Shown here: piece by piece, positions 17,761 to 45,221 of the stretch | Layout of the letters: each line of letters opens with the position of its first letter | How positions within the stretch are numbered: the first letter of the stretch is position 1 | Assembly: GCA_041651095.1 (NCBI GenBank) | Contig: JBAZJV010000001.1 | Location: 83,835-147,834, forward strand | DNA: 64,000 nt | Reading direction: 5' to 3' | DNA from: Patescibacteria group bacterium | GTDB lineage: Bacteria; Patescibacteriota; Patescibacteriia; Patescibacteriales; UBA12465 | Notes under the pieces: generated by a model | Seen by the model: only the letters and a program-made list of their open reading frames with translations | Told to the model about the DNA's origin: nothing | Databases searched by the model: none | Program-made: the position numbers and the translations under genes

Positions 17761-17768
17761 ACCAAGCT

Positions 17769-19304: not shown

Positions 19305-19318
19305 GGATATTTAAATAT

Positions 19319-19930: not shown

Positions 19931-19938
19931 GCGAAATT

Positions 19939-21411
19939 ATGAAGCGCGATCGCTCTCAGACAACCCGTTCCTCTAATCGCCTGTTGGTCAACCCTGACCA
20001 GGACCTTTTCCGTTGGAAGGTGGACGCTTATCCTTCCCTGGTTTACGCCGTCTGTCGCGACATGACCAAGTCGCCGTATGGCTGGCCGAAGTCGGAAGGC
20101 TTTTTCTTCGGGCATGATTTCTATTGGTATGATAATTGGTCGGTTATTTGGGCGCATGGTGACAAGTTTATCGCCAAGTATCTGAAACATTCCCGCGGTC
20201 GCTTGCCGGCTGAACGAATAAGACGGTATGGGGCCGCTTTTAAGAGTCTGCGCCGTTTGGTAGCGCGTAGCGCCAAGGCAAATTACGCTCAGCTGGAGTT
20301 ACCGGCTTTGCGTCGCCAGTGGTTCGCTTTTTTTAAAACTTATGCCCATTTTTGGCTGGTCATCACCGATATAGAGGTCCTGAATTACGCCGCCAGCCGC
20401 CGGTTGGAAAAGTTGATCGCTCAACGCCGGATCAAGCTCAGCCCGGATGAAATTTCCCAGCTGACTGCTTTCCCGCAGCGGTCTTATATTTTGGAAGAGG
20501 AATATGAATTATTGAAAATCGCTTTTGCGTTGTCAGCCTCCCGCCGCCCGGCCGCGCTCCGACGCCACGCCAGTAAATTTTCCTGGATTTTAAACGGCTA
20601 CCATGGCGTCCGGCCGGCAACGGCGAAATTCTTTGTCGATCGCCTGCGCCGCTTCTTAACTGACCGGCAGGCCAGGGAACATTACCAGCAACTGAAAGAT
20701 TATTATCGCCTGACGGAGAGAAAATTCAAACAGATAGTTAAACAGCATAACCTGGATTCCGAAATCGTTAAATACGCCCGACTAGCCCAGCAGGCTTCTT
20801 TTATCCAGGATCGGCGCAAAGCCTTGGCCTGGCGGGCCACGACTTATATCATTGCCCTATATCGGCGTCTGGCTCAGCAACTTGATTGCAACCTGGAACA
20901 GGCCCTGTATATTCTATGGGATGAATTCGATACCGCCGTTAAAAATCCCGGAACGATGCTCAAGGAAGTCGCCCGGCGTCAGAAATGTTCCCGTCTGCGT
21001 ATTTGGGGCGATCGGACCACGATTTCTACCAAGGATGTCGCCAGGATTTTCGCCGTCTTTGAAAAGCAATATGTTGCTGCTCTGGGTCAGGAGGTCAAGG
21101 GGACGATTGCCTATACCGGACGAGTGGTCGGCCGGGTACAAATAATTTCGGGCGGAAAGGATATCAGCCGTTTCCAACCGGGCCGGATCCTGGTAGCGCT
21201 CATGACCTCGCCGGACTATATCGCGGCGATCAAGAAAGCCAAGGCCATCGTGACGGATGACGGTGGCCTGACCTGCCATGCCGCTATCGTGGCGCGGGAA
21301 TTAAAAAAGCCCTGTATTGTCGGAACCAGGAACGCGACGAAGGTCTTGCATGATGGCGATCTGGTGGAAGTAGATGCCAACCACGGGATAGTTAAGGTTA
21401 TTAGTCAATAA
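19939..21411 (+). CDS. Paralog 3 of 9: helical domain plus swivel phosphohistidine domain
   Basis: GRILVALMTSPDYIAAIKKAKAIVTDDGGLTCHAAIVARELKKPCIVGT. His codon at 21277-21279. Confidence 0.85.
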   Translation: MKRDRSQTTRSSNRLLVNPDQDLFRWKVDAYPSLVYAVCRDMTKSPYGWPKSEGFFFGHDFYWYDNWSVIWAHGDKFIAKYLKHSRGRLPAERIRRYGAAFKSLRRLVARSAKANYAQLELPALRRQWFAFFKTYAHFWLVITDIEVLNYAASRRLEKLIAQRRIKLSPDEISQLTAFPQRSYILEEEYELLKIAFALSASRRPAALRRHASKFSWILNGYHGVRPATAKFFVDRLRRFLTDRQAREHYQQLKDYYRLTERKFKQIVKQHNLDSEIVKYARLAQQASFIQDRRKALAWRATTYIIALYRRLAQQLDCNLEQALYILWDEFDTAVKNPGTMLKEVARRQKCSRLRIWGDRTTISTKDVARIFAVFEKQYVAALGQEVKGTIAYTGRVVGRVQIISGGKDISRFQPGRILVALMTSPDYIAAIKKAKAIVTDDGGLTCHAAIVARELKKPCIVGTRNATKVLHDGDLVEVDANHGIVKVISQ

Positions 21412-21416
21412 AATAT

Positions 21417-22940
21417 ATGTCTTATCAACAGTATAATTGGGAAGCAGCCGGCAAGGATTACAATTCTCCTTATTTGCGCAATCATCTTTGGACCGTCGCT
21501 ATCACTAAATATCGTGATTTAATGGGTATCTCTTGTCCGATGCTCGGCATTGCTTCCCGCAATAACCAGATCGAGTATATCGGTGATCTGGCTACTTGGG
21601 GTAAAACGCATGAAGAACTAAAGGCGAAAATATTAGCCGATTATAACCTGCTCGATGAGTTGATCGATAAAACCCTGCAATGGGGAGAAGAATTCAACCG
21701 TTGGACCGAAATTAAAATTTACCAAGCGGATTTAAGCCGGGCTACCAATAAACAGCTCCTAAATCTACTGCTGGAATTCATTGATCGCCAAGCGACGGGT
21801 TATGCCTACGGGACCGCCTTGCCAACCCTAGATTTTCAGAATTTTTCTTTTGTCGAGAGCAATTTAAACCGTTTTCTTAAGGCTAAAGCCAATCCGGCGG
21901 ATTTTGCCGATTGTTACACCGTTTTTACGGAACCAATCCATAATTCTTTCGCCCAAGACCAGGAAGAGGCTTTGTTAAAACTGATGGCCGACCATTACCT
22001 GGATGCTGAGTGGCGGCACTCTGTCCAAGAACAGGAAATTGGCGTAATCCAAGAAAGGTACCCAGAATTCTGCCGCCGATTAGCCGAACATACCCAGACC
22101 TACGCTTGGGTATACTATGTTTATATGGGGCCCGCTTTTACGATTAATGATTTTTACGGTTTTATCCGTGATTATCTGAATAGGAATGTTAATCCGACTG
22201 AACGGCTGGCAGAAATTAAGGCTAAATCGATCCGGGTTGCTGAGGCGAAAGAGCGTTATTTAGCCAAATTCCGGCCCAGCGGTCTTGATGAGTTTATTCT
22301 TAAGATCGCTGGCAAGGTGGTGTGGGCGAAGCCGCGCCGGAAAGACTATCAGAGCAAGTCTTATTATCATGCTGAGAAATTATTACGGGAAATCGCTAAA
22401 CGTCTTTTTGTCTCCCTGGACCAGATCCGTTCATTACCGACCCCGCTAATTATTCAAGCCTTGCAGGGCGGGGAACCTGACCTGACCGTAGCTAACGACA
22501 TTAAAAAATTACACGTTTGCCTACCAGATAATGGGCAAGTTGTTGATTTATTTGGTAAAGCGGCGGAACACTTTTGCCGCAAAGTGTTAAAGGTTGAGTC
22601 AACGCCGATTGGCGCAGACGCCAAAGAGTTTGGCGGTGTCAGCGCTTGCGCCGGACGTGCCACTGGTTGCGCTAAAATCATTAATCTCCCGGAGGATATG
22701 GCCAAAATGGAATATGGCGACATTCTAGTATCATCTGGCACCACCCCGAGCATCGTACCGGCCATGAAAAAAGCCGCGGCTATTATTACTGACGAAGGTG
22801 GACTCACCTGTCATGCCGCCATCGTTTCCCGGGAATTGAATATTCCCTGCGTGGTTTCTCTGAAAATAATTAGTCGGGTCGTAAAAGACGGCGATCAGCT
22901 GGAAGTAGACGCGACACAAGGGAAGGTGAAGAAGCTGTAG
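21417..22940 (+). CDS. Paralog 4 of 9: helical domain plus swivel phosphohistidine domain
   Basis: GDILVSSGTTPSIVPAMKKAAAIITDEGGLTCHAAIVSRELNIPCVVS. His codon at 22812-22814. Confidence 0.85.
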   Translation: MSYQQYNWEAAGKDYNSPYLRNHLWTVAITKYRDLMGISCPMLGIASRNNQIEYIGDLATWGKTHEELKAKILADYNLLDELIDKTLQWGEEFNRWTEIKIYQADLSRATNKQLLNLLLEFIDRQATGYAYGTALPTLDFQNFSFVESNLNRFLKAKANPADFADCYTVFTEPIHNSFAQDQEEALLKLMADHYLDAEWRHSVQEQEIGVIQERYPEFCRRLAEHTQTYAWVYYVYMGPAFTINDFYGFIRDYLNRNVNPTERLAEIKAKSIRVAEAKERYLAKFRPSGLDEFILKIAGKVVWAKPRRKDYQSKSYYHAEKLLREIAKRLFVSLDQIRSLPTPLIIQALQGGEPDLTVANDIKKLHVCLPDNGQVVDLFGKAAEHFCRKVLKVESTPIGADAKEFGGVSACAGRATGCAKIINLPEDMAKMEYGDILVSSGTTPSIVPAMKKAAAIITDEGGLTCHAAIVSRELNIPCVVSLKIISRVVKDGDQLEVDATQGKVKKL

Positions 22941-22972
22941 GCAATGTTCAGAATATATCAAGCTGCTTAACT

Positions 22973-24409
22973 ATGTGGTCAAAATATATAACCAGAAGAT
23001 TAGCCGTCCAGGTCGCCCAATCCTGGAATTTCGCCTGGGGAGAGGCGATGCGCCAAGTTTATGGGGTTTCCGTACAGGACACCCTGGTATTCCGCGACCA
23101 GCGGAAGACCGAATATTATGTTGATGATAAGCAGTATCAACGTTATATCCGCGAGCTTTATCGATTGTTGTCCCGGCCGGATTTCGTTAAGAACTTTCAT
23201 CGCCAAGCCGAGAGTAAACTAGCTAGCATCTTAAAAAACGTCCAGCGCCGGTTTGACCTAGATTTCGGCGGCTTGTCCAACGCCGAATTGCTCTCTTTAT
23301 ATCGTGATTTCACTTTGCCGCAAGTAGAGCAGTTCTATATCCGGATGTGGACCGTTTTTAATATCGCCGAACCGCTTACGGCTGTCGTACGAGCTGAATT
23401 AGTGGATCGCTTGAAAGATGAGAGGTGCGTTGATGAATTTTTGCTCAAGCTCGCTTCGCCGCTCCGGCCTAACGACGTTTTGCATAAACAGATCGACATC
23501 CTTAGTCTGGCGGCGCGGCGACGAAGCTTGTCCGCCAGGCAATTGGCAGCGGGAATCATGAAATTGGTCGCCAAGTACCGCCACATCCCGATGTTCGATT
23601 TTGACCATGAGCCATATGGACGGGATCATTTCCGGCAAGAGTTACAATCAGTGAAGCGGCCGGCTCAGAAATTACTAGCCATTAAACGACTTCTGGCCTC
23701 TCACCGGCGCGAGGCGGCGGCGATAATCAAAATACTCAAGCCGGATCGAAAATTGCGGCAGCTATTAAAATTCTTGCAGGACAATGTTTTCCTGCGGGAC
23801 CATCGCGATATGCTCCGGCAGAAGCTTAATTTGGAGTTACAGAAGCTGTATCAGGAAATCGCCGATCGTCTAGGATTAAAGCTGGAACAAGTGGCGACCC
23901 TGACTAACCAGGAGATTATTTATCATTTAAAAACAGTTAAACATTTTCCTCGCGTCGAGGCGGTCCGGCGGGGTCGGGCCTATCTATTGGTCCAGAAAGG
24001 CCGCCGGGCGCAAATATATTCCGGTCGTCAGGCTTTGGCTAAATTCCGTCAAGAGTTAGCGCCGAATCGGCAAACGGCCAGTCGAGAATTGCGGGGCATT
24101 GCCGCTTCGCCCGGCCGGGCGACTGGTCCGGCCAGGGTTATCTATACTAATCGCGATCTGTCAAAGGTAAGGACCGGCGATATTCTGGTGGCGGCCATGA
24201 CTAGACAGGATTTTGTCCCGGCTATGGGACGAGCTAAAGCGATTATCATTGATGAGGGTGGCATCATTTGTCATGCGGCCATCATTGCCAGAGAATTGCA
24301 TAAACCTTGCGTGGTCGCCCTTAAAACAGCCACTCATTTCATTCAGGATGGCGACCGGGTTGAGGTCGACGCCGACAGAGGAATAGTGAAAATACTATCC
24401 CATATTTAA
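22973..24409 (+). CDS. Paralog 5 of 9: helical domain plus swivel phosphohistidine domain
   Basis: GDILVAAMTRQDFVPAMGRAKAIIIDEGGIICHAAIIARELHKPCVVA. His codon at 24272-24274. Confidence 0.85.
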   Translation: MWSKYITRRLAVQVAQSWNFAWGEAMRQVYGVSVQDTLVFRDQRKTEYYVDDKQYQRYIRELYRLLSRPDFVKNFHRQAESKLASILKNVQRRFDLDFGGLSNAELLSLYRDFTLPQVEQFYIRMWTVFNIAEPLTAVVRAELVDRLKDERCVDEFLLKLASPLRPNDVLHKQIDILSLAARRRSLSARQLAAGIMKLVAKYRHIPMFDFDHEPYGRDHFRQELQSVKRPAQKLLAIKRLLASHRREAAAIIKILKPDRKLRQLLKFLQDNVFLRDHRDMLRQKLNLELQKLYQEIADRLGLKLEQVATLTNQEIIYHLKTVKHFPRVEAVRRGRAYLLVQKGRRAQIYSGRQALAKFRQELAPNRQTASRELRGIAASPGRATGPARVIYTNRDLSKVRTGDILVAAMTRQDFVPAMGRAKAIIIDEGGIICHAAIIARELHKPCVVALKTATHFIQDGDRVEVDADRGIVKILSHI

Positions 24410-24412
24410 CTT

Positions 24413-25825
24413 ATGGAGCGATTAAATCCGCAAAATTATATTTGGGAATGGGAACGGAACATGTTTCCTTATTACACCTACTTAATGGCTAATGGCTGGT
24501 TAGTCTTTTCCCATTGGCCGGTTTATACAGTCAATATATGTGAACGGGGAGTTGCGAACGGCTATCTGGAGAAAAAATCATTGGAGCAAGCGGCGGCCAA
24601 GATTGTCGCCAAGGTTAAAAAAACCGATGCCTATCGGCGTAATTGGGAGATTGTAGTTGATCGTACCGGTCGTGAATTATTGAAATTTTGTAGCTATTTG
24701 GACCGGATCGATTGGCCAAAGTTAAGTGATCGTCAACTTAAGGAAATTTGCCGTTTATCTCTTAAAAAATTTTATGCCCACAATAAACAGGTCGTTATGA
24801 TTCGGGTGCCTAATCGTTTAATCCAGTCCATTCTTTTAAAGAATTTTGATCCAACTACCACGGCTTTACTGTTGTCGGCCACCAAAAAAAGCTTTTTCGT
24901 GAGCGAACACGAAAACCTATTGCGTTTAGCGGAAAAAATTAAACGACGCCGCTTGAAAAGAGCGGAACTTGATATGCTAATAAACGCCCATGTTCAAAAA
25001 TATCGCCATATTTTAGCCGGTTTTTATAAAGAACGGCCGTTGACAACTCTCTCCATCAGAAAGAGTCTGGCTCGTCTAATAAAAAGTCGGGAAACCCTGC
25101 CAGACTTTCAAGGACAGATCAGGCAGGCTGCCGCCAGAAGAAAACGCCTCTTGCGGGGCTTATCACTTTCTCCTGATTTACGGCGCATTATTGAATTTGG
25201 AGCGCTTTGCACCTATTTTAAGGATTTAATCCGAGTTAATTGTAACCGTTGGCTTTATTCACAACGTCAGATTTTTAAAGAAATCGGCCGTCGTACCGGC
25301 AAGAGCTGGGAGGTCGTTGCCAGCTTATCGCCCGAAGAAGTAGAGGGGCTGATCAATAAACCGAAAAGAATATTACCGTTCCGGTCCAGGATTTTCTACT
25401 CTAATGTCTCCGGCATTCAGGTCGTATCCGGCCGGCCGGCTCAAATAATTGCTCGACGTTTTCATAATTATTTTTTTACTGCTACAACGAAAGAAATAAC
25501 CGGTACCGCCGCCAATAATGGCCGAGTCAGCGGCAAAATTTTAGTTATTCATCATGCTCAAGAAGCCGCTGGTCGGCGAGATTATATTTTGGTAGCAACC
25601 ATGACTACGCCAGATCTGATGCCGGCGATTAGAAATGCGCGGGCGGTTATAACCGATGAAGGCGGCCTAACTTGCCATGCCACCATTATCGCTAGAGAAC
25701 TAAACTTGCCGTGCATCATCGGCACTAAGATTGCCACAAAAATTTTACATACCGGTGACTTAGTAGAGGTTAATGCCGATAAAGGGATTGTTAAATTAAT
25801 AAAACCAGCTAAACGGCAACATTAA
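24413..25825 (+). CDS. Paralog 6 of 9: helical domain plus swivel phosphohistidine domain
   Basis: YILVATMTTPDLMPAIRNARAVITDEGGLTCHATIIARELNLPCIIGT. His codon at 25676-25678. Confidence 0.85.
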   Translation: MERLNPQNYIWEWERNMFPYYTYLMANGWLVFSHWPVYTVNICERGVANGYLEKKSLEQAAAKIVAKVKKTDAYRRNWEIVVDRTGRELLKFCSYLDRIDWPKLSDRQLKEICRLSLKKFYAHNKQVVMIRVPNRLIQSILLKNFDPTTTALLLSATKKSFFVSEHENLLRLAEKIKRRRLKRAELDMLINAHVQKYRHILAGFYKERPLTTLSIRKSLARLIKSRETLPDFQGQIRQAAARRKRLLRGLSLSPDLRRIIEFGALCTYFKDLIRVNCNRWLYSQRQIFKEIGRRTGKSWEVVASLSPEEVEGLINKPKRILPFRSRIFYSNVSGIQVVSGRPAQIIARRFHNYFFTATTKEITGTAANNGRVSGKILVIHHAQEAAGRRDYILVATMTTPDLMPAIRNARAVITDEGGLTCHATIIARELNLPCIIGTKIATKILHTGDLVEVNADKGIVKLIKPAKRQH

Positions 25826-25852
25826 TAATATAGTATTTTTTACCATATTATA

Positions 25853-25905
25853 TTGACAAATATACTATATATTAGTAAGATTGATTAAAACTATTAATCA
25901 ATCTT
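25853..25905 (+). promoter_or_regulatory. Candidate sigma70-type promoter overlapped by a perfect 12-bp inverted repeat (candidate operator) upstream of paralog 7
   Basis: TTGACA (25853-25858), then N17, then TAAGAT (25876-25881). AAGATTGATTAA (25877-25888) and TTAATCAATCTT (25894-25905) are exact reverse complements with a 5-bp spacer. The repeat ends 6 nt before the ATG at 25912. Confidence 0.4.
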
Positions 25906-25911
25906 TTTAAT

Positions 25912-27726
25912 ATGTTAGACCGTCTCATCAATTCGCAGACCCGGCTAGCCATCTTAAATTTGTTCTTCCAAGACCCAGCCAAGAAATATTACAGCCGGGA
26001 AATCGTCAAGTTGCTCAAGCTGGATCCGGCCAATGTCCATAAAGAGTTGGCCAACTTAGTGGCCGGCAATTTTTTGCTGACGGAAATCGCGGCCGGAAAA
26101 AAATATTTTCTGATCAACCGGCAGAACCCCTTCTTCGGCGGTCTGCAAGAAATATTCTCTCGTTATCAGGCCAAATCAGCCATACCGCAGCTCATCTGCG
26201 TGGAAGAAATGCCGAACTATTATCCGATGATGGTGACTTTAGCCTGGAATACTTATTGGGCTAACGGCCTGTTCGCTCGCTTCGGGATAAAACGGCGCTT
26301 TTCCTGCCTGTTATCGATCTATCAGGATAATCTCTGCCAGTTGCTGGTGCCTAAGCAGGGATTTACCGCTATCGGCGAAGAAATACTAAGTCTGGTCGTC
26401 AATGATCCGGCTTGGGGCGACCGTTATATCCGGGAATTGAAAGAGCAGGAAGGGAAGTTGTACCGCGTTTCCGAGGAATTAAAGAAACTGAATCTAAAGA
26501 AATTCTCCGATCGGGATTTATTCAAGGTCTATGCTGATTATTATGAAATATACAGCCAGTTGCACGTTTTCCACTGGATCCAGACCGGCCTGGATTTTGA
26601 TGAGAACGTCTTTTCCAAGTACTTGATGGCCTATCTGAAAAAACAGATTGTCGGTACCGCCTATTCCTTGGGCGACGCCTTTTCCGTCTTAACGACTCCT
26701 TTGGCCGAGGCCAAGCCGGCGGAAGAGTATCGGGACTTATTGCTGATTTATCAGAGCATTTGCCAGGAAGCAAAATTGAAAAAATATTTTGCCGATACGG
26801 AAACTAGGCTGATCGTTTCCGAATTGCCGGAACGGCAGCTCAAATTATGGCATACGATCCAGCGGCATGCGGCCGATTTCGGATTTTTGGGCTATAATAC
26901 GGCCGGGCCGGCCTGGGACGCCGCTTATTTTATCGATATCTTAAGCAGCCTGGTCCGGCAGGCCGCCAAACCGGAGGTCCTGTTGGCTGAAATTGCCGCC
27001 AATAAGCAAAATACGCAGGCCAAACAGCGGCAACTGGAAAAAGATTTGCGCCTGGATGAAAACCATCTCCGTATTTTCCATTTTGCCCGCGACCTGATCT
27101 TTTCCAAAGGCACCCGCAAGGATTCTATGTTTTACAGTTATAGCATCATCGAGAATCTCTGGCGGGAAATCGGCCGGCGCCATTATTTATCCGTGCGGCA
27201 AGTCCGCTATCTCCATCCCCATGAAGTTAAGAAATTGCTGGTCGAGCATAAGTTCGATACCGCTATTTTGAACGAACGCTATAAGTTCAGCCTTAATTTT
27301 TCCGTTGGCCGTTATGAAGAAGATAAGAATCTGACCGGCCAGGCCGCCAAGGATTTCATCGCTACGTTGGATATCATCCAAGAAGATATCAGCAACGTCA
27401 AGATCCTTTACGGCGACTGCGCCTCGCCCGGGCGGGTGCGCGGGGAAGTCAAGATCATCAATGAACCCAAGGATATGGCCAAAATGAACAAAGGAGATAT
27501 TCTGGTTTCTTATGCCACGACGCCGGATCTGGTGCCGGCGATCAAGAAAGCGGCGGCGATTGTCACGGATGCCGGCGGCATCACCTGCCACGCCGCCATC
27601 ATTTCCCGAGAGCTCGGCGTGCCCTGCGTCGTCGGCACCAAGATCGCTACCAAAGTCCTGCATGATGGTGATATAATAGACGTGAACGCCACCCACGGCA
27701 AAGTGGATATCATTAAGAAAGGATAA
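25912..27726 (+). CDS. Paralog 7 of 9: N-terminal winged-HTH, helical domain and swivel phosphohistidine domain
   Basis: The N-terminus SQTRLAILNLFFQDPAKKYYSREIVKLLKLDPANVHKELANLVAGNFL is ArsR/MarR-like wHTH. The C-terminus reads GDILVSYATTPDLVPAIKKAAAIVTDAGGITCHAAIISRELGVPCVVGT. His codon at 27589-27591. Confidence 0.85.
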   Translation: MLDRLINSQTRLAILNLFFQDPAKKYYSREIVKLLKLDPANVHKELANLVAGNFLLTEIAAGKKYFLINRQNPFFGGLQEIFSRYQAKSAIPQLICVEEMPNYYPMMVTLAWNTYWANGLFARFGIKRRFSCLLSIYQDNLCQLLVPKQGFTAIGEEILSLVVNDPAWGDRYIRELKEQEGKLYRVSEELKKLNLKKFSDRDLFKVYADYYEIYSQLHVFHWIQTGLDFDENVFSKYLMAYLKKQIVGTAYSLGDAFSVLTTPLAEAKPAEEYRDLLLIYQSICQEAKLKKYFADTETRLIVSELPERQLKLWHTIQRHAADFGFLGYNTAGPAWDAAYFIDILSSLVRQAAKPEVLLAEIAANKQNTQAKQRQLEKDLRLDENHLRIFHFARDLIFSKGTRKDSMFYSYSIIENLWREIGRRHYLSVRQVRYLHPHEVKKLLVEHKFDTAILNERYKFSLNFSVGRYEEDKNLTGQAAKDFIATLDIIQEDISNVKILYGDCASPGRVRGEVKIINEPKDMAKMNKGDILVSYATTPDLVPAIKKAAAIVTDAGGITCHAAIISRELGVPCVVGTKIATKVLHDGDIIDVNATHGKVDIIKKG

Positions 27727-27737
27727 ACTTAGTTTTC

Positions 27738-28358
27738 ATGTCTAAAACTATCGCGCCAGCCAGGATCAAGCTGATCATTATTGATTTATACGGCATCATG
27801 ACCTTCGGCAGTTATAAGGACACCTGCCAGTGGCTGTGCCGGAAATACGGGTTCGATTATCAGCAGTGCTATCAATTGGTCTATCATAAATATTTCTGTC
27901 AGGCCGTAGAGCGGAAGATTTCCGAGCGGGAATCGTTTGCCTTAACCGCGAAGGCTCTGGGAATAGAAGAGTCAGGCGACCAGTTGCGCGATCTACATAT
28001 TTCCTACTTTATCCTTAACCGAGCAGTCTTACGTTGGGCTCTGGCCAGGAAGAAAGAAGGCTATAAAATCCTTTTATTATCTAAGAATACGCCGAGCCAA
28101 TTCCGGTATGTAGTTGAAAAATATAATTTAAAAAAATACTTCAGGGTCATCAATACTTATTATATTGGCATTGACAAAAAGTCGCCAAATATGGTAAAGT
28201 ATATTTTAAAGAAGTATGGGTTGGAGCCAGCAGAAATCCTGATGACCGACGATCAAGACTTCAATTTGGCTTATCCGGCTAAGATCGGCGCGCACACTAT
28301 CTTATATAAAGATTTCACTAGTTTTAAGAGAAAAGCCAAATTAATACTTAATAATTAA
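27738..28358 (+). CDS. HAD-like hydrolase-fold protein with a non-canonical motif I
   Basis: Motif I-like IIIDLYGIM, where the second Asp of DxD is Tyr. Motif II-like LLLSKNT. Motif IV-like MTDDQDFN. 206 aa. Confidence 0.45.
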   Translation: MSKTIAPARIKLIIIDLYGIMTFGSYKDTCQWLCRKYGFDYQQCYQLVYHKYFCQAVERKISERESFALTAKALGIEESGDQLRDLHISYFILNRAVLRWALARKKEGYKILLLSKNTPSQFRYVVEKYNLKKYFRVINTYYIGIDKKSPNMVKYILKKYGLEPAEILMTDDQDFNLAYPAKIGAHTILYKDFTSFKRKAKLILNN

Positions 28359-28412
28359 GACCTTGGCTTAAATTTTAGCTAAACTCTAATTTAAGTCTAA
28401 GCTAATAAATTT

Positions 28413-29306
28413 ATGGGTTTATTCAACTTTAACTTCGGAGAAAAGCCGGCGACATCCGAGAAAAAGGCCGAAGATTTCGGTCGTAATATTAAGGCGACTC
28501 TGGAGTTTAAGCGCCATCAAGATCCAGGCAAAGATCAGGCCACTGGTATGAGCGCCGATTGGTTAACTGAAAAAGGGAAAACAGCCTCTATTCAGGACGG
28601 GAAAGCGATAGAAGAAAATTCTGTCAAGGGATATGCTTCACCCAAGAAAAGAGCACAGGAGACTGTGGACTTGATGTTGGATAATGTTTATACTAGCCCA
28701 GCTTATTCCGTTGATGTAATTAATAAATCCACAGCTTCGCTGGAAGGGACTGGTGCCGAAAAGCTAAATAATAATCAGCGGGAAGAAAATAAATTTAATA
28801 TTAGGACCCGGCAGGAATTAGATGCAACCGCCAACTTCGTCAAGATAATGCCGATAGCCAGCGCTTGGGCGGAGGAGCAGCTTAAAGGTGGCGCAAAATT
28901 AGATAAATATTCTCTAATCGTCCAGTGGTATTTGGATAATCCGGAGAAGTGTAAAGAAAATGGAGTTTTAACTGGCCATGAAACAGCGGCGGAAATTGCC
29001 GAGCGGGTCGCGGTCGAACTTGGTATGACGGAGAGATTTTATAGAAATAGCGTAGTACGGTTAATTAATGTCACGCATGGTCCGAAAATTGAACCATTTC
29101 TTCAGGAATTAGTAGGCTTTAAAAATTTAGCCGAGATTGGCGGCGCTTTACAGCCGGGAGAAAGTATTAATTTTGCGGTCAGAATCGACGCCAATAAGCG
29201 AAAAACGGTAAAATTATTATTCCGCGATAAGGAATATCCGATCGACGAAGCGCAGATCAAAGCCCTAGCGCAGGAGTATCGGGATAGGATTGAAGGGAGA
29301 AAATAA
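28413..29306 (+). CDS. Histidine-phosphatase (phosphoglycerate-mutase-like) superfamily protein, divergent
   Basis: FKRHQD (RHG-like), ASPKKRAQETVDLM (SPxxRAxxT-like) and VTHGPKIEPF (late HG motif). 297 aa. Confidence 0.45.
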   Translation: MGLFNFNFGEKPATSEKKAEDFGRNIKATLEFKRHQDPGKDQATGMSADWLTEKGKTASIQDGKAIEENSVKGYASPKKRAQETVDLMLDNVYTSPAYSVDVINKSTASLEGTGAEKLNNNQREENKFNIRTRQELDATANFVKIMPIASAWAEEQLKGGAKLDKYSLIVQWYLDNPEKCKENGVLTGHETAAEIAERVAVELGMTERFYRNSVVRLINVTHGPKIEPFLQELVGFKNLAEIGGALQPGESINFAVRIDANKRKTVKLLFRDKEYPIDEAQIKALAQEYRDRIEGRK

Positions 29307-29322
29307 AAAATATTTAGCAATT

Positions 29323-29352
29323 AAAAAAGAGATACATTAGTATCTCTTTTTT
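29323..29352. terminator. Bidirectional intrinsic terminator between convergent genes
   Basis: A-run, AGAGATAC (29328-29335), loop ATTA, GTATCTCT (29340-29347), then T5. Confidence 0.65.
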
Positions 29353-29414
29353 GATCTGTCTCCCTCCAGATCGTTTAGAAATTTTTGAAAAAAATTTTTT
29401 TGCCGTCCGCAGTG

Positions 29415-30047
29415 TTATCCGATCAGGGCTACTGGCGTGATTTTGATATCGTTATTTCTGACGAAGTCAAAATCTTGGACGAATAATATGCCTTGTAATT
29501 CCTTTAAAGCTAAATCCGGTCGTAGGTTCAAGGCGATGCTTGGTTCAACATCTTCTGCTTTGCAGGAATGAGCCAAGAGTTCGATCATTGGGGTGTGCCC
29601 GATGATAATGAGGAATTCGTTCTCTTCTATTTCGGCGAACTTTCTTTCCAGAGCCTCTGCCTGGTCTTTTTGTATTTTCGTCAATAGATCAGGCGCCACC
29701 GTCTTCAGGGCATTATACCAGCCGGAGCGTTTTTGCTCGGCCATTAATTCGGCGTTGCCGGTCATTTGTTTGAATAAATCAGCATTACCGAATCGTGGAT
29801 CGGCAGGCAGAATTTGTGTCGCCACAATCCCTTTATCGTAAATATAATCTAGATATGCCTGTGCGGTTTGGGCGGTTCTTTCCAGACCGCTACCTTCGCA
29901 TACCGATACCGGCAGCCCGTTTTCAGATTGGTTAAACACTAGGCCGTTTAATCCGGTGATTCCATTTATTTTAATTTCAGTTAGTTGATCCGCGGCGATT
30001 AATTCGCCGCCTTTTCTTCCGTGGCGTACAAATGCGATTTTTTTCAC
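29415..30047 (-). CDS. Histidine-phosphatase (phosphoglycerate-mutase/SixA-like) superfamily protein
   Basis: MKKIAFVRHGRKGG (RHG motif at the extreme N-terminus), SGLERTAQTAQ and LIIIGHTPMIELL. 210 aa. Confidence 0.6.
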   Translation of the reverse strand: MKKIAFVRHGRKGGELIAADQLTEIKINGITGLNGLVFNQSENGLPVSVCEGSGLERTAQTAQAYLDYIYDKGIVATQILPADPRFGNADLFKQMTGNAELMAEQKRSGWYNALKTVAPDLLTKIQKDQAEALERKFAEIEENEFLIIIGHTPMIELLAHSCKAEDVEPSIALNLRPDLALKELQGILFVQDFDFVRNNDIKITPVALIG

Positions 30048-30136
30048 GATTAACTCCTATTGGTTGTTGGTTGTTGTTATTTATTGTTAAAAAAACGAAA
30101 ACTCTTTATAAATAGCCATTTTTTGACTATTAAAAT

Positions 30137-30165
30137 ACTATAGCACTTTTAAATAATTATGTCAA
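30137..30165 (-). promoter_or_regulatory. Candidate consensus promoter for the minus-strand histidine-phosphatase gene
   Basis: On the minus strand: TTGACA (30165-30160), N17, TATAGT (30142-30137). Confidence 0.45.
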
Positions 30166-30226
30166 TACTTTCAAATTTAATCCTAAAATATGTGCAATAG
30201 ATGGGGATACGTTAGCCAACATATCA

Positions 30227-30292
30227 TTGACAAACACGGGCTTTATGATATTATTGTTTTGTAAACAATATCGATTGTCTATTAAACAAATA
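30227..30292 (+). promoter_or_regulatory. Candidate promoter plus two TTGTN-N5-NACAA half-palindromic sites upstream of paralog 8
   Basis: TTGACA (30227-30232), N16, TATTAT (30249-30254). TTGTT-TTGTA-AACAA lies at 30254-30268 and TTGTC-TATTA-AACAA at 30275-30289, 21 bp apart. The second site ends 5 nt before the ATG. Confidence 0.35.
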
Positions 30293-30293
30293 T

Positions 30294-32171
30294 ATGAAAA
30301 ATCTTTTTAAATCCCAGACCGCCTATGAAATCTTGGAACTTTTAAGCACTAATCCGGACTATGGTTTTTCTTTGCCGGAAGTCAGAAAGCAAGTGAAAAA
30401 GGATGCCGCTAACGTAGTGCGCGAATTAGGCAAGCTGGTCAAAGAGGGGATAGTGGACCAGCAAACTAAAGACCGCAAGAAGACCTATCGTTTCAATAAA
30501 GACTATTCGCTCGGGCCGGAGCTGATCAGCTTATTGCAGAAAAACAAGGCGGCCGCTATTGAGCCGCGCTTTAAGCGTGAATGGCTGCTGGCGGAAGAGA
30601 TTATGAATGCTAATCCTTGGTTTATGGCCATTCCATTCTATTGCTTTACCAATCAATTCGCGGCGCCGGGCGGTCGTGCCTATCAGCACCAGGCCTGCGT
30701 CTATAAGGATTATCATCTCTGGTTCTATTTTGATAAGCAGGATGCCTACGAAGTCGGCGAGCATCTAGTTAATAAGTTCGAGGGCGATATCGACTTCATG
30801 GAGGAAGTGAATACCCAGATCAGGTCCTTCGCTGATAAATTAGTGGCGACGGTCGATAAGATCCCGGAGTCTAATTTGCACAAGTTAAGCGCCGATAAGC
30901 TCTGGCAATATTATCAGGAACATGAAAGCGTGCACCATGAATATTACCAATGGGGCTGGATTCCGGTCGCCGCCGATATGTTCGGCGACAATCTGACCAA
31001 CCGCGGCAAGCAGATTTTAGCCGGTCTGCGGGTGTCGGCCGATAAGATCGAGGAATATCTAGCCTTATTGACTCAGCCGGATAAGGCCTCATTGCTTAAG
31101 GAAGAGCAGGATAATTTGGTAAATATTGGTATCCAAGTCCAGTTTAATGCCCAGCAGTTTGAATTGTTCAAAGAATTGTTCCGCAAGTTCAAAGAGGAAG
31201 ATGTAAAATTCTTTGGCTTATACACGCATAGCGAAGAGTATGAGATTAAATTCGAAGAAGCGGTACGGGCAATAAAAAAGAAGATTGACCCAAAGATTTT
31301 AGACGCTTTGCAAAAGCACTATGCCAAGTATTTTTATACCAAGTTCATCTATACGGAAGAGCAGGGGGTCTACAGCTTTGAGCATTATCTGAAAGAATTG
31401 GTCCGGTTGGTCAACGGTGATTACAATTTGGCCGCCACGCAGCAGAAACAGGAAGAAGGCATCGCCGATATGTTGAGACAGAAGCGGACGTTGGCTGAAC
31501 GGCTCAAACTGCCGGAAAAGATTAGCCGGTTTTTCAATGCCTGGGGCGATTTCATGGTGACTAAGATCTATCGCCGCTATGCCCAGCTATTCGCGCTCTA
31601 CAAGACGACCTATATCCTGGAAGAGATCGCCCGGCGCCTCGGATTAACCATCAAAGAAGTCCGCTTCATGACTTCGCGGGAAATCAAAGCGGCTTTATTC
31701 GACCATAAGCTGGATAAAGAAGAGGTTAAATCCCGGGTCAAGCTTAGTGTCTACTATACGGCAAAGGATACCGAGATTTATTATAGCGGTTCAATTGCCC
31801 AGGAAATCGTGGTAAAATATATCCAGAAAGAGACAGACCAGAATGTGGCTGAGCTGAAAGGCCAGTGTGGCTGCCGCGGCCAGGCCAAAGGCCGGGTGTG
31901 CATCGTCAATGTGATCAGCGACATGGCCAAGATGCAAAACGGGGATATCTTGGTGTCTATTTCCACTCAGCCGGACCTCTTGCCGGCCATGAAGAAGGCG
32001 GCCGCTTTCGTTACCGATCAAGGCGGCGTCACCTCGCATGCGGCCATCGTCGCCCGGGAAATGAATACGCCCTGCGTCATCGCTACCAAGATCGCCACTC
32101 AAGTCCTGCACGACGGCGACCTGGTCGAAGTCGATGCGGACAAGGGAATTGTCAAAATAATTAAAGCATAA
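30294..32171 (+). CDS. Paralog 8 of 9: N-terminal winged-HTH, helical domain and swivel phosphohistidine domain
   Basis: The N-terminus TAYEILELLSTNPDYGFSLPEVRKQVKKDAANVVRELGKLVKEGIV is wHTH-like. The C-terminus reads GDILVSISTQPDLLPAMKKAAAFVTDQGGVTSHAAIVAREMNTPCVIAT. His codon at 32037-32039. Confidence 0.85.
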   Translation: MKNLFKSQTAYEILELLSTNPDYGFSLPEVRKQVKKDAANVVRELGKLVKEGIVDQQTKDRKKTYRFNKDYSLGPELISLLQKNKAAAIEPRFKREWLLAEEIMNANPWFMAIPFYCFTNQFAAPGGRAYQHQACVYKDYHLWFYFDKQDAYEVGEHLVNKFEGDIDFMEEVNTQIRSFADKLVATVDKIPESNLHKLSADKLWQYYQEHESVHHEYYQWGWIPVAADMFGDNLTNRGKQILAGLRVSADKIEEYLALLTQPDKASLLKEEQDNLVNIGIQVQFNAQQFELFKELFRKFKEEDVKFFGLYTHSEEYEIKFEEAVRAIKKKIDPKILDALQKHYAKYFYTKFIYTEEQGVYSFEHYLKELVRLVNGDYNLAATQQKQEEGIADMLRQKRTLAERLKLPEKISRFFNAWGDFMVTKIYRRYAQLFALYKTTYILEEIARRLGLTIKEVRFMTSREIKAALFDHKLDKEEVKSRVKLSVYYTAKDTEIYYSGSIAQEIVVKYIQKETDQNVAELKGQCGCRGQAKGRVCIVNVISDMAKMQNGDILVSISTQPDLLPAMKKAAAFVTDQGGVTSHAAIVAREMNTPCVIATKIATQVLHDGDLVEVDADKGIVKIIKA

Positions 32172-32175
32172 ATTT

Positions 32176-33693
32176 ATGCCCTCTCCTATCAGCTTATCGC
32201 TGATCAAGGGTCACAAATGGTATCGCCAGCAGACCGAAGGCACGCCATACTTCATCTATTTGCCGTGCCGCGGCGTGGTTGATTATTTCCGGAGCCGGGC
32301 AGGCATCATTTGGTTTTGCAGCTTGGACGAAGCGCGCGGTTATCTGGAACAAGGCTATATTCGCCGTCTGGCGGAAAGACATTTAGCCTTGGAAAAACAG
32401 CATCCCGGCCGCTCGAAAAAAATGTATGCCAAGTGGCAGCGGGCTATTCCGGATAAGAACAGCCGTTTATTCCGGGCTATCGACAATTTGGATTTATCAT
32501 CAATTAGCAATCAGAAATTATTAAAATTGAATCACGCCCTCGGCCGGCAGGCTTATAATATGTGGCTGCAGTTTTTCATGGATATCTTTGACGCCGACGC
32601 CGAGAGCCTTATTGAACAGGAGTTGATTAGGGCCGGCCGGACTTTAACGGCCGATGAAAAAAATATCCTGACCATGCCGCCCTGCTTATTGGTCAATCAA
32701 GCCCAGGAATTAGCGCTTTTGAAAATAGCCAGGTTAGCCAAACAAGAACCAGATTGCGTCTATTTGCTTAGCCGCATTCAATCTCAGGATAATATCCATC
32801 GTTTGAAATTGCAGCCGCAACTGTTGCGGCACATTGAAACCTATTTGCGCGATTACCACTGGGCTAGGAACAGCTGGGCACATGTTAACACCATCAGCGC
32901 CTTCGACGTGGTCGATCAGGTCAAGCAGATTATCACCAGTTCGCGTGATATTGAGGCCGAAATCAGGCAGCTGGATAATTATCGGCGCGATCTGCCAAAG
33001 AAAAAAAAGATGATTCGCCGGAAACACCGCTTATCGCCTTGGCTAGGGCAGATGTTCGAGATGTTCGGACTCTTGGCGCTCTGGCGCGACGGTCGCAAGG
33101 AAAATATGCAGCAGCTGCATTATTATTTGCAGCTGGTCGGCACGGAAATCGCCCGACGCAGCCATATCAGTTGGGATAAGATCAAGTTTGCCGATCCGTT
33201 CTGTATCCAGTCGATTCCGGTTAAGCCCCGGGTGCTGGAGCGTTGTTACCGCTTGCATCGGGATAATAAGCTGCTGTATTGGGATGGCGCGGTCAAGCAT
33301 TTCTCTAAGGAGGCGAGCCGTAAGTTCGAGAAAGCGCTTGAAGACACTTTCTCCACCAGCGTGACCGAGGTGCGCGGTTTTATTGCTTGTCCGGGCAAGG
33401 TGAAGGGGGAAGTGGTAATTATTAATAAAAAAAGTGAATTTAATAAAATGTCGCCAGGCAAAGTTTTGGTCACGACTATGACCCGGCCGGATTTTCTGCC
33501 TTTGATGAAACAGGCGTCCGCTGTTATCACCGATGAAGGCGGTATCACCAGCCATGCGGCCATCGTTTCCCGGGAACTGAAGATTCCTTGCATCATCGGC
33601 ACCCAAGTGGCGACCAAAGTTTTGCAGGACGGCTATCAGGTGGAGGTGAACGCCAACCATGGCGTGGTGTTGGTTATTGGTAAAAATAAATAA
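32176..33693 (+). CDS. Paralog 9 of 9: helical domain plus swivel phosphohistidine domain
   Basis: GKVLVTTMTRPDFLPLMKQASAVITDEGGITSHAAIVSRELKIPCIIGT. His codon at 33553-33555. Confidence 0.85.
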   Translation: MPSPISLSLIKGHKWYRQQTEGTPYFIYLPCRGVVDYFRSRAGIIWFCSLDEARGYLEQGYIRRLAERHLALEKQHPGRSKKMYAKWQRAIPDKNSRLFRAIDNLDLSSISNQKLLKLNHALGRQAYNMWLQFFMDIFDADAESLIEQELIRAGRTLTADEKNILTMPPCLLVNQAQELALLKIARLAKQEPDCVYLLSRIQSQDNIHRLKLQPQLLRHIETYLRDYHWARNSWAHVNTISAFDVVDQVKQIITSSRDIEAEIRQLDNYRRDLPKKKKMIRRKHRLSPWLGQMFEMFGLLALWRDGRKENMQQLHYYLQLVGTEIARRSHISWDKIKFADPFCIQSIPVKPRVLERCYRLHRDNKLLYWDGAVKHFSKEASRKFEKALEDTFSTSVTEVRGFIACPGKVKGEVVIINKKSEFNKMSPGKVLVTTMTRPDFLPLMKQASAVITDEGGITSHAAIVSRELKIPCIIGTQVATKVLQDGYQVEVNANHGVVLVIGKNK

Positions 33694-33704
33694 AGCCAAA
33701 ATAT

Positions 33705-34643
33705 ATGTTCATCAAATTTTTCAAGGACATTACTAAAAAGAGCGTAGGAGAAGCTGGCGGCAAGGGCGCTTCGCTCGGAGAGATGACCAATGCCAAGATT
33801 CCGGTACCGCCTGGTTTCGTGATTTTAGCCGAGGCTTTCTATCAATTCTTGGCGGAAACGGATCTGACCCAGGCCATCCAGGCGGTGCTAGATAAGATCA
33901 ACTATAAGGATATCAACGCGGTAGACGGCGCTTCCGCGGAGATTCGCTCTTTGATCATGAAAGCGCCGATGCCCAAAGATTTGGAGAAGCTGATCAAGGC
34001 TGATTTTAAAAAACTAAAAGCCAAATTCGTCGCGGTCCGCTCCAGCGCCACAGCGGAAGATTCTTCCTCCGCTTCCTGGGCCGGGGAATTGGAAACCTAC
34101 TTGAATACGACGGATAAGACCTTGCTGTTAAACGTAAAGAAATGCTGGTCTTCGCTGTTTACGCCGCGGGCTATTTTCTACCGCCATGAGAAAAAATTAT
34201 TAAAGACCAAAGTCGGCGTGGCGGTCGTGGTGCAGCAAATGGTGGAGTCGGAAATCTCCGGCATTGCTTTTACTGTCCATCCGGTCACCCAGGACAAGAA
34301 CCAGATGATCATCGAAGCCGGCTACGGCCTGGGCGAAGCCATCGTCTCCGGTTCAATCACGCCAGACTCCTATGTCCTGGACAAAAGGGATTATTCTTTC
34401 ATCGATATCAATGTCGCCGGCCAGGAACGCCAAATCATCAAAGGGCCGTCCGGCGGCACGAAATGGGTGGCGGTTCCGGCGGCCCGCCGGGAAAAACAGA
34501 AGCTCAGCGGCCAACAGATCGTCGGATTGGCGAAGATCTGCGCCGGAATAGAGAAGCACTATAAGTTCCCCTGTGATATCGAATGGGCTCTGGCCAAGGG
34601 CAAATTCTATATCACTCAGAGCCGGCCGATAACTACGCTCTGA
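33705..34643 (+). CDS. Stand-alone PPDK_N-type ATP-grasp (nucleotide-binding) domain protein of the PEP synthase/PPDK/RPH family
   Basis: SVGEAGGKGASLGEMTNAKIPVPPGFVI, FVAVRSSATAEDSSSASWAGE and VAVVVQQMVESEISGIAFTVHP. It is 312 aa and ends where full-length enzymes continue into further domains. Confidence 0.9.
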   Translation: MFIKFFKDITKKSVGEAGGKGASLGEMTNAKIPVPPGFVILAEAFYQFLAETDLTQAIQAVLDKINYKDINAVDGASAEIRSLIMKAPMPKDLEKLIKADFKKLKAKFVAVRSSATAEDSSSASWAGELETYLNTTDKTLLLNVKKCWSSLFTPRAIFYRHEKKLLKTKVGVAVVVQQMVESEISGIAFTVHPVTQDKNQMIIEAGYGLGEAIVSGSITPDSYVLDKRDYSFIDINVAGQERQIIKGPSGGTKWVAVPAARREKQKLSGQQIVGLAKICAGIEKHYKFPCDIEWALAKGKFYITQSRPITTL

Positions 34644-34766: not shown

Positions 34767-36296
34767 ATGTTTGATTACTTACAAAAATTTAATAGTCTGC
34801 CCAAGGAACTGCGCGACCGGATTTCCGCGCCGGCCGTCATGGCGGCGGTGACGGAATTGGAGGATAAGTACCAGGTCGATCTGGCCATGACTGTCATGAA
34901 AGTGATGATCCGCAGCCTGACCGTTAAGGAATTGCCGGTTTTTTTTGTCAGTGAGGCGGGCTTGCCGCAGAATGCGGCGGAAAACCTGACCCGCGAACTG
35001 AAAGAGCGGGTTTTTGCTGTCGTGGCTGATTACCTGGGCCTGCAGTCGGAAATGCGCGCTCTGGATTTGGAACGGGATATCAGCGGCCTGATCAAAGAAG
35101 CCGGCTTATCTTTGGCCAGCGATAATCTGGTCAGCCGTTTGAAGAATATTCTGGCGACTTATCTGCGCGGCGTACGCAACAAGATCGATACCAGGAACGC
35201 TTTGGCTAAGGATGTGAAAATCGGCGGCCTTAACTTGAGCGCCGCGGAAATCGACCGTCTTTTAAAAATCTGCGATAGCGGCAAATTAAGCGCCGTTTCT
35301 CCGGTTTCTGCCGCGGCCTCGGCGTCCGCTCACCCCAAGCCGGCCGTTTTCGCTTTGCCGCCGGAAGAGTACGATCTTAAGCAGGCTTTAGCCAGTGGCC
35401 AGGTAAAACCTGTCGTGAAGCCCGCTCCGAGCCAGGCCCAACCGTCGCCGCTGCAACCTGCCGTCGGCTTAGATACCAGCCACGAGATCAGCGCGCCGGA
35501 TCGCCAGCTGGATCTGGCCGCGCCAACAAAACCCGTGGCGCCAGTTAACTTACCTATTCCGCCAACCGTCCCGTCGTTGTCCGACAAGCCGACCGTCGCG
35601 CCCTCTTCGCCGGTCGTCATCCAGCCGACCCAGACGGTTCAGACAGTCCAGCCGATCAAGCCGGAACCGGTCAAGAAGATCGAATTAGTCCATGCGCCTA
35701 AGAATATCCAGGCTATCACGAATATTCAGGTAAATACTCAGTCTAAGGTCCAAACTAAGGCCGGCTCTCCGGTTGCCAGCCGTTTGGCGCCTCTTTCGGC
35801 GACGCCGCCGGGGACGCCGGGCGTCCCGCCCCAGTCTTCGGCAGCAGCCTCGCCGACTATCGCCGCTGCCGCCCAGGCCGCGGCGCCAGCGCGGCCGACC
35901 CCGGCCCGTCGTCCGGTAGTGGCGCCTCCTTCCGCCCGGCCGCGGATGCATGATATCAGGCCGGTACCCAAGGTCATGGGGCCGATAGAAGAATTGCAAT
36001 TCTTGGATCCGGTCAATTTCCGCCGCTTGGGTCAGGCGCCGGCGGAAGCGACCGCCAAGATTTTTGCGAAGATAAAACTTTTGGAAAAAGACGGCTATGA
36101 TAAGATGATCGCCGGCGTCCGGGCCTGGCGCCAGAGTCCGGTCAACCGGCTGTACTTGCGCATCGGCCAGGAAGCGATCGCCGGCGGGCTGTTATTGAAA
36201 GACGCTGTTTCAGCCCGACAGCAGGCCGGCCAGGAAACTCTGAGCATGGAAGAGATTGAGGCCGTAGTCAAGCTGAACAGCAAGCTGGTATTCTAA
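34767..36296 (+). CDS. Hypothetical protein with a long Pro/Ala/Val-rich central region
   Basis: Intact 509-aa ORF. No catalytic motif recognised. Confidence 0.65.
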   Translation: MFDYLQKFNSLPKELRDRISAPAVMAAVTELEDKYQVDLAMTVMKVMIRSLTVKELPVFFVSEAGLPQNAAENLTRELKERVFAVVADYLGLQSEMRALDLERDISGLIKEAGLSLASDNLVSRLKNILATYLRGVRNKIDTRNALAKDVKIGGLNLSAAEIDRLLKICDSGKLSAVSPVSAAASASAHPKPAVFALPPEEYDLKQALASGQVKPVVKPAPSQAQPSPLQPAVGLDTSHEISAPDRQLDLAAPTKPVAPVNLPIPPTVPSLSDKPTVAPSSPVVIQPTQTVQTVQPIKPEPVKKIELVHAPKNIQAITNIQVNTQSKVQTKAGSPVASRLAPLSATPPGTPGVPPQSSAAASPTIAAAAQAAAPARPTPARRPVVAPPSARPRMHDIRPVPKVMGPIEELQFLDPVNFRRLGQAPAEATAKIFAKIKLLEKDGYDKMIAGVRAWRQSPVNRLYLRIGQEAIAGGLLLKDAVSARQQAGQETLSMEEIEAVVKLNSKLVF

Positions 36297-36298
36297 AT

Positions 36299-36718: not shown

Positions 36719-36719
36719 T

Positions 36720-37400: not shown

Positions 37401-37407
37401 AGCCTCT

Positions 37408-39321: not shown

Positions 39322-39369
39322 TTAGCGTCGTAATAAGAATATCCTGCTTCAGGCAGGGATTATAAATAT

Positions 39370-39993: not shown

Positions 39994-40017
39994 TGATCGC
40001 GCTCTTATTATAGCCCT

Positions 40018-45126: not shown

Positions 45127-45221
45127 ATTTTTATGGCTAACTGGCCAATTTCAGATTGACAAGGCCAAGTATATTTTATATATTGATTATAACATAAAAT
45201 CCGGAAAAAGAGGACATTTAT

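Follow-up and report, generated by a model that had tools for sequence, protein, structure and literature searches.

In this study, we analyzed a stretch of 64,000 nucleotides from a Patescibacteria group bacterium (contig JBAZJV010000001.1, positions 83,835 to 147,834 of the forward strand), hereafter the window, with respect to an array of paralogous genes, to two of its members, paralogs 7 and 8 (p7 and p8), and to the intergenic DNA that precedes each of these two. Nine open reading frames (ORFs) ending in the PF00391 swivel-His domain lie on the plus strand between positions 16333 and 33693. The genes p7 (25912-27726, 604 amino acids) and p8 (30294-32171, 625 amino acids) are the long members among the nine. 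In BLASTP alignments with unfused paralogs, p7 residue 168 corresponds to residue 89 of paralog 4 and p8 residue 144 to residue 51 of paralog 2, and therefore both proteins carry about 80-93 extra N-terminal residues. The genes are preceded by gaps of 86 nt (25826-25911, guanine plus cytosine (G+C) content 0.14) and 246 nt (30048-30293, G+C 0.26), respectively, which are the largest and most AT-rich of an array with an overall G+C content of 0.48 and other gaps mostly of 2-54 nt. This agrees with the original prediction, made from the sequence of the window, that the fused paralogs stand behind AT-rich gaps. Downstream of p7, and on the same strand, a HAD hydrolase gene (27738-28358) and an ORF weakly similar to His_Phos_1 (28413-29306), both recognized with Pfam, complete a first putative sub-operon. 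The second consists of p8, paralog 9 (32176-33693) and a stand-alone ATP-grasp gene (33705-34643, PPDK_N, E 7e-99), also on the plus strand.

The extra N-terminus of p7 (residues 1-84, encoded at 25912-26163 of the plus strand) has a mean predicted local distance difference test (pLDDT) score of 86.7 in the full-length AlphaFold model. Its elements follow the order helix-helix-helix-strand-strand-helix (helices 9-20, 28-35 and 39-51, strands 55-60 and 63-68), and a low-confidence linker of about residues 85-93 separates it from the enzyme body. That of p8 (residues 1-86, 30294-30551, plus strand) was modeled within residues 1-96 with a pLDDT of 84, which exceeds 90 for residues 11-70, and consists of helices 8-19, 27-34 and 38-50, strands 54-59 and 62-67, and helix 74-86. 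Both models present the winged-helix topology, in which helices 1 and 2 are followed by helix 3, the recognition helix, and by a wing formed by a beta-hairpin. When the isolated p8 domain was searched with Foldseek, 49 of the top 50 matches were winged-helix DNA-binding proteins (MarR, ArsR, TubR, AspA); the lone non-regulator was a human methyltransferase at rank 38, aligned through a winged-helix-like stretch of 67 columns. MepR, HpaR, AntR, CzrA, SqrR, HlyU and TubR were matched with E values of 1e-4 to 1e-3 and template modeling (TM) scores of 0.55-0.75. The PDB matches of profiles built from the orthologous N-termini were likewise nearly all winged-helix regulators (MarR, CzrA/ArsR, CadC, HlyU, Fur, SarA), and homology between the domain of p7 and that of p8 was clear from profile-profile comparison (HH probability 99.7%, E 1.6e-25). 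In p8 orthologs the recognition-helix residues N40 and R43 are invariant, and K62, K63 and Y65 of the wing are nearly so. The recognition helices of the two proteins, ANVHKEL in p7 and ANVSREL in p8, are related but distinct. No Cys/His metal site of the ArsR/SmtB type (alpha3N or alpha5) was found, since residues 1-90 of p8 contain neither Cys nor His and those of p7 contain only H43. Given the agreement of AlphaFold, Foldseek and profiles, the winged helix-turn-helix (wHTH) domains of ArsR/MarR type that had been proposed from a residue pattern are upheld, and we regard the extensions with high confidence as predicted ArsR/MarR-like winged helices on a flexible linker. The same wHTH subfamily is widespread in metagenomes (2603 cluster representatives at E <= 1e-3), where it often forms the N-terminus of proteins of ~190 amino acids with a Pol-beta-type nucleotidyltransferase domain (P0198, P0215 and others) and also occurs stand-alone.

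Behind the wHTH domain, p7 comprises a small alpha/beta unit, an all-alpha substrate-binding-like domain and the swivel-His domain, as delimited by Foldseek, profile comparison, PF00391 and the orthologs. The best Foldseek match of the full p7 model was the rifampin phosphotransferase (RPH) of Listeria, RPH-Lm (5fbt, 5fbu and 5hv1; E about 2e-14, ~650 aligned columns). The profile of p7 orthologs aligned residues 266-601 with residues 532-878 of RPH (E 5e-22), and phosphoenolpyruvate synthases matched it over the swivel domain only. The small-molecule dikinases HpeHI, CreHI and PpsAB were described in 2025 as two-component homologues of RPH, in which the domains for substrate binding and swivelling belong to the H protein and the I protein is the ATP-grasp; HpeH was present partly as monomer and partly as dimer, and the phospho-carrier motif was defined as T/S-x-x-G-G-x-x-x-H (PMC12167813). 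Residues T552, G555, G556 and H560, which form this motif in p7, are invariant in 52 p7 orthologs, and G-G-x-x-x-H-A is kept by all nine paralogs of the window. This makes it probable that the fused proteins have enzymatic activity and are not pseudoenzymes. Since the enzyme body matches RPH-like H components and a stand-alone PPDK_N protein is encoded alongside, the region 16333-34643 looks like a split system of the RPH/HpeHI type with nine H-type components, p8 among them by its PF00391 domain and its orthologs, and one I-type component (33705-34643). The enzyme module, previously labeled a swivel-His kinase, is thus more exactly the H component of a two-component dikinase, as the structural and profile matches to RPH indicate.

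For comparative purposes, 56 related loci were collected (designated below by L numbers), about 55 of them with a fused gene. Full-length orthologs numbered more than 50 for p7 and about 100 for p8, many from Patescibacteria, and some p8 orthologs bear the Joint Genome Institute (JGI) name 'phosphohistidine swiveling domain-containing protein/DNA-binding transcriptional ArsR family regulator'. The gene orders p8-p7-grasp, p8-grasp and p7-grasp were all seen, and in most loci examined the ATP-grasp gene lies directly 3' of the last fused paralog, while the number of unfused paralogs varies. Judged by this gene order, the fused paralogs are the conserved core of the system and not derived oddities. 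In L001, L025 and L033, too, the p7 ortholog has a HAD gene behind it. Some relatives encode a third wHTH-fused paralog of ~579 amino acids (L001, 1026-2765; L025, 950; L027, 1529; L029, 211; L031, 778), which is absent from the window and has a long palindrome of its own, ATGCTAATTT...AAATTAGCAT (ATGCTAA...TTAGCAT), directly before the ATG.

The p8 gene is preceded on the plus strand by a promoter candidate matching 11 of 12 consensus positions, with an extended -10 (TTGACA at 30227, N16, (TG)n-TATTAT with the hexamer at 30249-30254; overall 30227-30254). Of 11 loci, 10 have TTGAC at -67 to -70. The 31 aligned upstream regions yielded the consensus TGnTATTATTGTTTTATAGACAATATnTATTGTCTATnAAACAAATATATG, with TGnTATTAT as the -10 and the layout TTGAC-N16/17-TGnTATTAT followed by two dyads. 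In the window, dyad 1 (ATTGTTTTGTAAACAAT, 30253-30269) is a perfect ATTGT-N7-ACAAT with arms of 8 nt (TATTGTTT/AAACAATA), and it extends over the final two bases of the -10 as well as over the predicted start site. Dyad 2 (ATTGTCTATTAAACAAA, ATTGT-N7-ACAAA, 30274-30290) lies 21 bp further downstream in the leader and ends 3 nt before the ATG. Two sites 21 bp apart next to the start codon had been noticed before; they were found again here and are better framed as 17-bp ATTGT-N7-ACAAT dyads. Allowing up to two mismatches, the dyad occurs in 36 of 39 distinct 60-mers upstream of p8 orthologs and in 16 of 177 matched AT-rich upstream regions used as controls, and two such dyads occur in 23 of 39 vs 1 of 177 (Fisher p = 5e-25 and 1e-19, respectively, values inflated by the relatedness of the loci). 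The dyad starts peak sharply at -41 (20/39 regions) and -20 (21/39). A matrix built from the orthologous sites, the two of the window included, scored dyad 2 at 24.1 bits and dyad 1 at 22.0 bits over the 64 kb, with the next best site at 12.3 bits; the count of ATTGT-N7-ACAAT in the window by itself is not significant (5 vs 2.4 expected). Within the half-sites the TTG/CAA core is invariant, and 82% of the cells are complementary vs 37-47% when the partner is slid; in some lineages ACAAT...ATTGT has changed jointly to GCAAT...ATTGC. As the end of the -10, the predicted start site and the leader all lie under the dyads, repression would be the predicted outcome of their occupancy.

The promoter candidate of p7 (TTGACA at 25853-25858, N17, TAAGAT at 25876-25881; plus strand) matches 10 of 12 consensus positions. 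TTGAC is present in all 20 distinct regions upstream of p7 orthologs, and their -10 is mostly TATAAT. Two dyads on the plus strand accompany this promoter: distal dyad 1 (ATAGT-N7-ACCAT, 25830-25846) is located about 22 nt 5' of the -35, and distal dyad 2 (ATTGA-N7-ACTAT, 25852-25868) overlaps the -35 hexamer. The pattern AT[T/A]GT-N7-AC[A/C/T]A[T/C], derived from the same ortholog regions, was present in 20 of 20 of them vs 3 of 163 controls (3% of shuffles). In 17 of the 20 regions, 18-25 nt separate the dyad 1 site from the TTGAC downstream of it, and a second dyad over the -35 occurs in 12 of 20 vs 0 of 163 controls (0.02% of shuffles), its right half-site co-varying with that of dyad 1 across lineages. 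In the window alone, the count of ATAGT-N7-ACTAT is not significant.

Over the -10 of the same promoter lies the inverted repeat (25877-25905), perfect over 12 bp and with 5 nt between its arms, that had been singled out in the original prediction as a candidate p7 operator. Its arms are AAGATTGATTAA (25877-25888), which holds the -10, and TTAATCAATCTT (25894-25905). The repeat was found as described over TTGACA-N17-TAAGAT and, as also noted there, differs in sequence from the p8 palindromes. In 200 shuffles of the proximal 50 nt, 12 perfect pairs never arose, and with its arms lengthened to 20 nt (at 90%) the repeat exceeds in length every other inverted repeat of the window. Perfect arms of 9-19 nt occupy the matching place in 13 of 20 p7-ortholog regions and are missing in the other 7, and the left arm always includes the -10 hexamer of the conserved TTGACA-N17/18 promoter. 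The arm sequence varies by lineage (AAGATTGATTAA, AGAATTAATTA, GTATAATTA, TATAATTTAT, ATAATTTTCTT). In a count anchored at the centre, each position at a distance of 3-14 from it forms a Watson-Crick pair in 13-16 of 16 loci, and two to four different pair types are seen at each. The conservation check suggested with the original prediction, which could have refuted it, came out in its favor, since the arrangements of promoter and dyad-symmetric sites are conserved in orthologous loci. The p8 dyads are conserved in sequence (36/39); for the p7 palindrome the symmetry is kept through compensatory changes (13/20) and the sequence is not. Because the arms drift and yet ANVHKEL, the recognition helix of p7, hardly changes across the same lineages, this palindrome is probably not the site read by p7; pairing kept without sequence conservation suggests a co-evolving second factor or a nucleic-acid structure. 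A search for protein-DNA covariation to assign sites gave no signal, the recognition helices being too invariant, and no paired sites with further copies of the half-site AAGATTGATTAA were found elsewhere in the window. The distal dyads are, on sequence grounds, the more plausible candidates for the p7 winged helix because they are better conserved, share their format with the p8 operator and would be read by a related recognition helix. With regard to the proposal that each fusion sits behind a private operator overlapping its own promoter, the promoters and dyads are indeed conserved in orthologous loci, but the p7 site is likelier to be the distal dyads than the 12-bp palindrome.

In attention to the above, we consider it reasonably probable that p7 and p8 are autoregulators of the trigger-enzyme type, that is, H-type dikinase components whose winged helix would bind dyads at their own promoters. 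What is established comprises the fold and domain homology of the proteins, the presence of promoter-like sites, and the way in which the dyads are conserved, positioned and spaced. Dimers of p7 and p8 would bind pairs of 17-bp dyads via their winged helices and, given the spacing of 21-22 bp, would lie on one face of the DNA. Binding of p8 would repress the p8-p9-ATP-grasp unit and, since this unit holds the only ATP-grasp gene, p8 would gate the whole nine-module system. In the case of p7, related dyads flank and overlap the -35 of the p7-HAD-phosphatase unit, and the 12-bp palindrome at the -10 would be an element apart, serving as a second operator or forming a hairpin in read-through RNA. 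The assignment of proteins to sites, the repression and, more speculatively, any modulation by substrate or His-phosphorylation are what we infer from these elements. Concerning the last, the swivel His would receive its phosphate from the shared ATP-grasp and pass it on to a small-molecule substrate, and its phosphorylation state might reposition or release the winged helix, in which case operator occupancy would report ATP supply against substrate load and p8 would set the ATP-grasp level for nine substrate-specific modules; we regard this extension as unlikely.

It must be considered that several points weigh against autoregulation. With Pfam, no family reached its gathering score on either extension (HTH_5 with 18.0 bits vs 22 on p7; HVO_A0114 with 19.8 vs 27.6 and MarR_2 with 15.8-16.6 vs 27 on p8), while precomputed PF01022 or PF25212 matches exist on some orthologs. 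As the subfamily is stand-alone or fused to nucleotidyltransferases elsewhere, the presence of the wHTH is by itself no proof of autoregulation. A covariation test of the p8 sites showed high complementarity and little covariation, because the sequence itself is conserved, so that it is this conservation which speaks for their dyad symmetry. The pattern of the p7 dyads was counted in the very sequences from which it had been derived, and the conservation of p7 dyad 2 is confounded because its left half is the -35 itself. Moreover, many of the loci are phylogenetically related, by which the Fisher p-values overstate independence, and another regulator could bind the dyads.

This last point may be taken further. 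The dyads may serve a separately encoded regulator, with the winged helices of p7 and p8 used for dimerization, for binding elsewhere in the genome or for tethering the enzyme to DNA. The breadth of the wHTH subfamily, many of whose members are stand-alone or fused to Pol-beta domains, means that paralogous free regulators may exist in the same genome; the assignment of either protein to its dyads is itself deduced from sequence, and a second factor, or else a structure, is already implied by the variation of the p7 palindrome among lineages. However, in all sampled neighborhoods the dyads are found essentially only 5' of fused genes, and each fused lineage (p7, p8 and the third one in L001, L025, L027 and L029) has its own dyad type. 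In the single-fusion genomes L007, L013 and L014 the dyad pair is still kept before the fused gene, two of the three being devoid of the proximal palindrome, and the related but distinct helices ANVHKEL and ANVSREL parallel their half-sites. We therefore find a separate regulator decidedly unlikely. A chance origin of the palindromes as functionless products of AT-rich intergenic DNA is hardly credible: the two gaps are indeed very AT-rich and the number of ATTGT-N7-ACAAT matches in the window is unremarkable, but the 12-bp repeat was unreached by shuffles and position-specific conservation extends over dozens of diverged loci vs matched AT-rich controls, so that this origin is refuted by the comparative data.

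As for the 12-bp palindrome, the alternative to a DNA site is that 25877-25905 acts as an RNA hairpin near the AUG on transcripts reading through from the gene upstream, terminating transcription or blocking translation. With the -10 inside the left arm and the predicted start in the loop, transcripts from the p7 promoter would begin inside the loop and stay open, so that only read-through RNA could fold. That pairing is kept with two to four Watson-Crick pair types at most arm positions is typical of structure, and a near-invariant p7 helix is an unlikely reader of such different arms. The folding energy predicted for the RNA hairpin of the window is -15.9 kcal/mol, with a z of -6.8, and those for L001, L004 and L005 are -7 to -9 kcal/mol; the extended stem reaches the AUG. 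Nevertheless, the left arm invariably includes the -10 of a conserved promoter, whose own transcript cannot contain the hairpin, the stems are almost pure A-U, G-U pairs are not in excess among the mismatches, the element is missing from 7 of 20 orthologous regions and an Rfam scan of 25700-30400 gave no relevant family. A U-run follows the palindrome in the window, L001 and L033 only, and is missing in most lineages (L004, L005, L009 and L010 among them). With one G-C pair in 12 and no entry for this repeat in the terminator scan, an intrinsic terminator at this position was mostly rejected, and it is kept only within the hairpin alternative. A hairpin thus remains doubtful, although it deserves more consideration than the separate regulator. 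The autoregulatory reading of the dyads, in which the palindrome is in any case a separate element, is the one we retain.

Several other features surround these genes. Between convergent genes, at 29320-29355, there is a terminator-like inverted repeat with 16-nt arms (94% complementary), the probable end of the p7 unit; it bears flanking A and T runs and resembles a bidirectional terminator. The divergent neighbor of p8 (29415-30047, minus strand, 210 amino acids), also its divergent partner in most loci, has a promoter candidate of its own at 30165-30137 (TTGACA-N17-TATAGT, 11/12). Its product starts MKKIAFVRHGRKGG, where an RHG motif typical of the histidine-phosphatase superfamily is found, while a Pfam search of this product gave no match. 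An HD gene (19319-19930) is interspersed in the array (16333-34643), as are the HAD and His-phosphatase-like genes. Upstream of the array, in the window as in related loci, there are genes for S-adenosylhomocysteine hydrolase, S-adenosylmethionine synthetase and a small cytidylyltransferase, and on its other side (34767-41361, and in related loci too) it is consistently followed by PrgI, TraC-like and VirB4-like genes, of type IV secretion or competence type, and by radA. Beyond ~45 kb (45000-64000) the G+C content drops from ~0.50-0.57 to 0.28-0.39, and this drop could reflect an assembly join, a genomic island or foreign DNA. A giant ORF near the beginning of the window encodes 2601 amino acids (82-7887), and in L001 an apparent transfer RNA-like sequence lies between paralogs at about 830-900.

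If DNA binding were coupled to the phospho-His or ligand state of the attached enzyme, p7 and p8 would represent a new wiring of enzyme state to transcription and, in the case of the phospho-state, a new class of one-component transducer, a transcription factor controlled by His-phosphorylation outside the two-component systems and the phosphotransferase system (PTS) regulators with PRD domains. Without such coupling, they would be a tidy and ordinary enzyme-repressor fusion. In either case, a defined candidate regulator-operator pair, with a 17-bp dyad, a sigma-70-type promoter and a foldable domain of 90 residues, becomes available for uncultured Patescibacteria with reduced genomes, and it is amenable to in vitro work without culturing the organism. 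The two-component RPH-like dikinases would also be extended to an arrangement in which one ATP-grasp serves many substrate modules and the core modules are putative transcription factors as well. No description of a winged-helix-fused dikinase component was found in the literature searched, although the fusion is machine-annotated in databases.

Among known systems, the closest are HpeHI, CreHI and PpsAB, together with the single-chain RPH, the best structural and sequence match to p7 (PMC12167813; PMC4844700). They share the build of the H component, with an all-alpha substrate-binding domain and a swivel-His domain bearing T/S-x-x-G-G-x-x-x-H, and in HpeHI, CreHI and PpsAB a separate ATP-grasp I component is encoded nearby. 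They differ in that here one ATP-grasp gene stands for nine H-type paralogs, the host has a reduced Patescibacteria genome, and two of the paralogs, or three in certain relatives, have a winged helix at the N-terminus, a feature that is not reported for HpeH, CreH, PpsA or RPH in the literature found. The combination of an active enzyme with a winged helix, and of dyad sites at its own or pathway promoters, is likewise present in BirA and in archaeal RbkR (PMC5397151; PDB 5trd), the latter at rank 40 among the structural matches to the p7 model. In those proteins, however, the enzyme is a ligase (BirA) or a riboflavin kinase (RbkR), whereas in p7 and p8 it is a phospho-His carrier component of a dikinase and DNA binding is predicted. 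The ArsR/SmtB and MarR repressors resemble p7 and p8 in the fold and length of the DNA-binding domain and in the predicted binding of dimers to promoter-overlapping 17-bp dyads. Unlike the former, p7 and p8 have no metal-sensing Cys/His cluster and, unlike the latter, they lack the MarR-type dimerization helices. They also differ from both in having an enzyme of 500 residues attached. Finally, the PTS-controlled PRD regulators (LicT, MtlR, LevR) are nucleic-acid binders that depend on a phospho-His relay related to the swivel chemistry of Enzyme I, and they are phosphorylated on their PRD domains by HPr or EII. In contrast to them, p7 and p8 have no PRD domain, and their phospho-His carrier resides in the same chain as the predicted DNA-binding domain.

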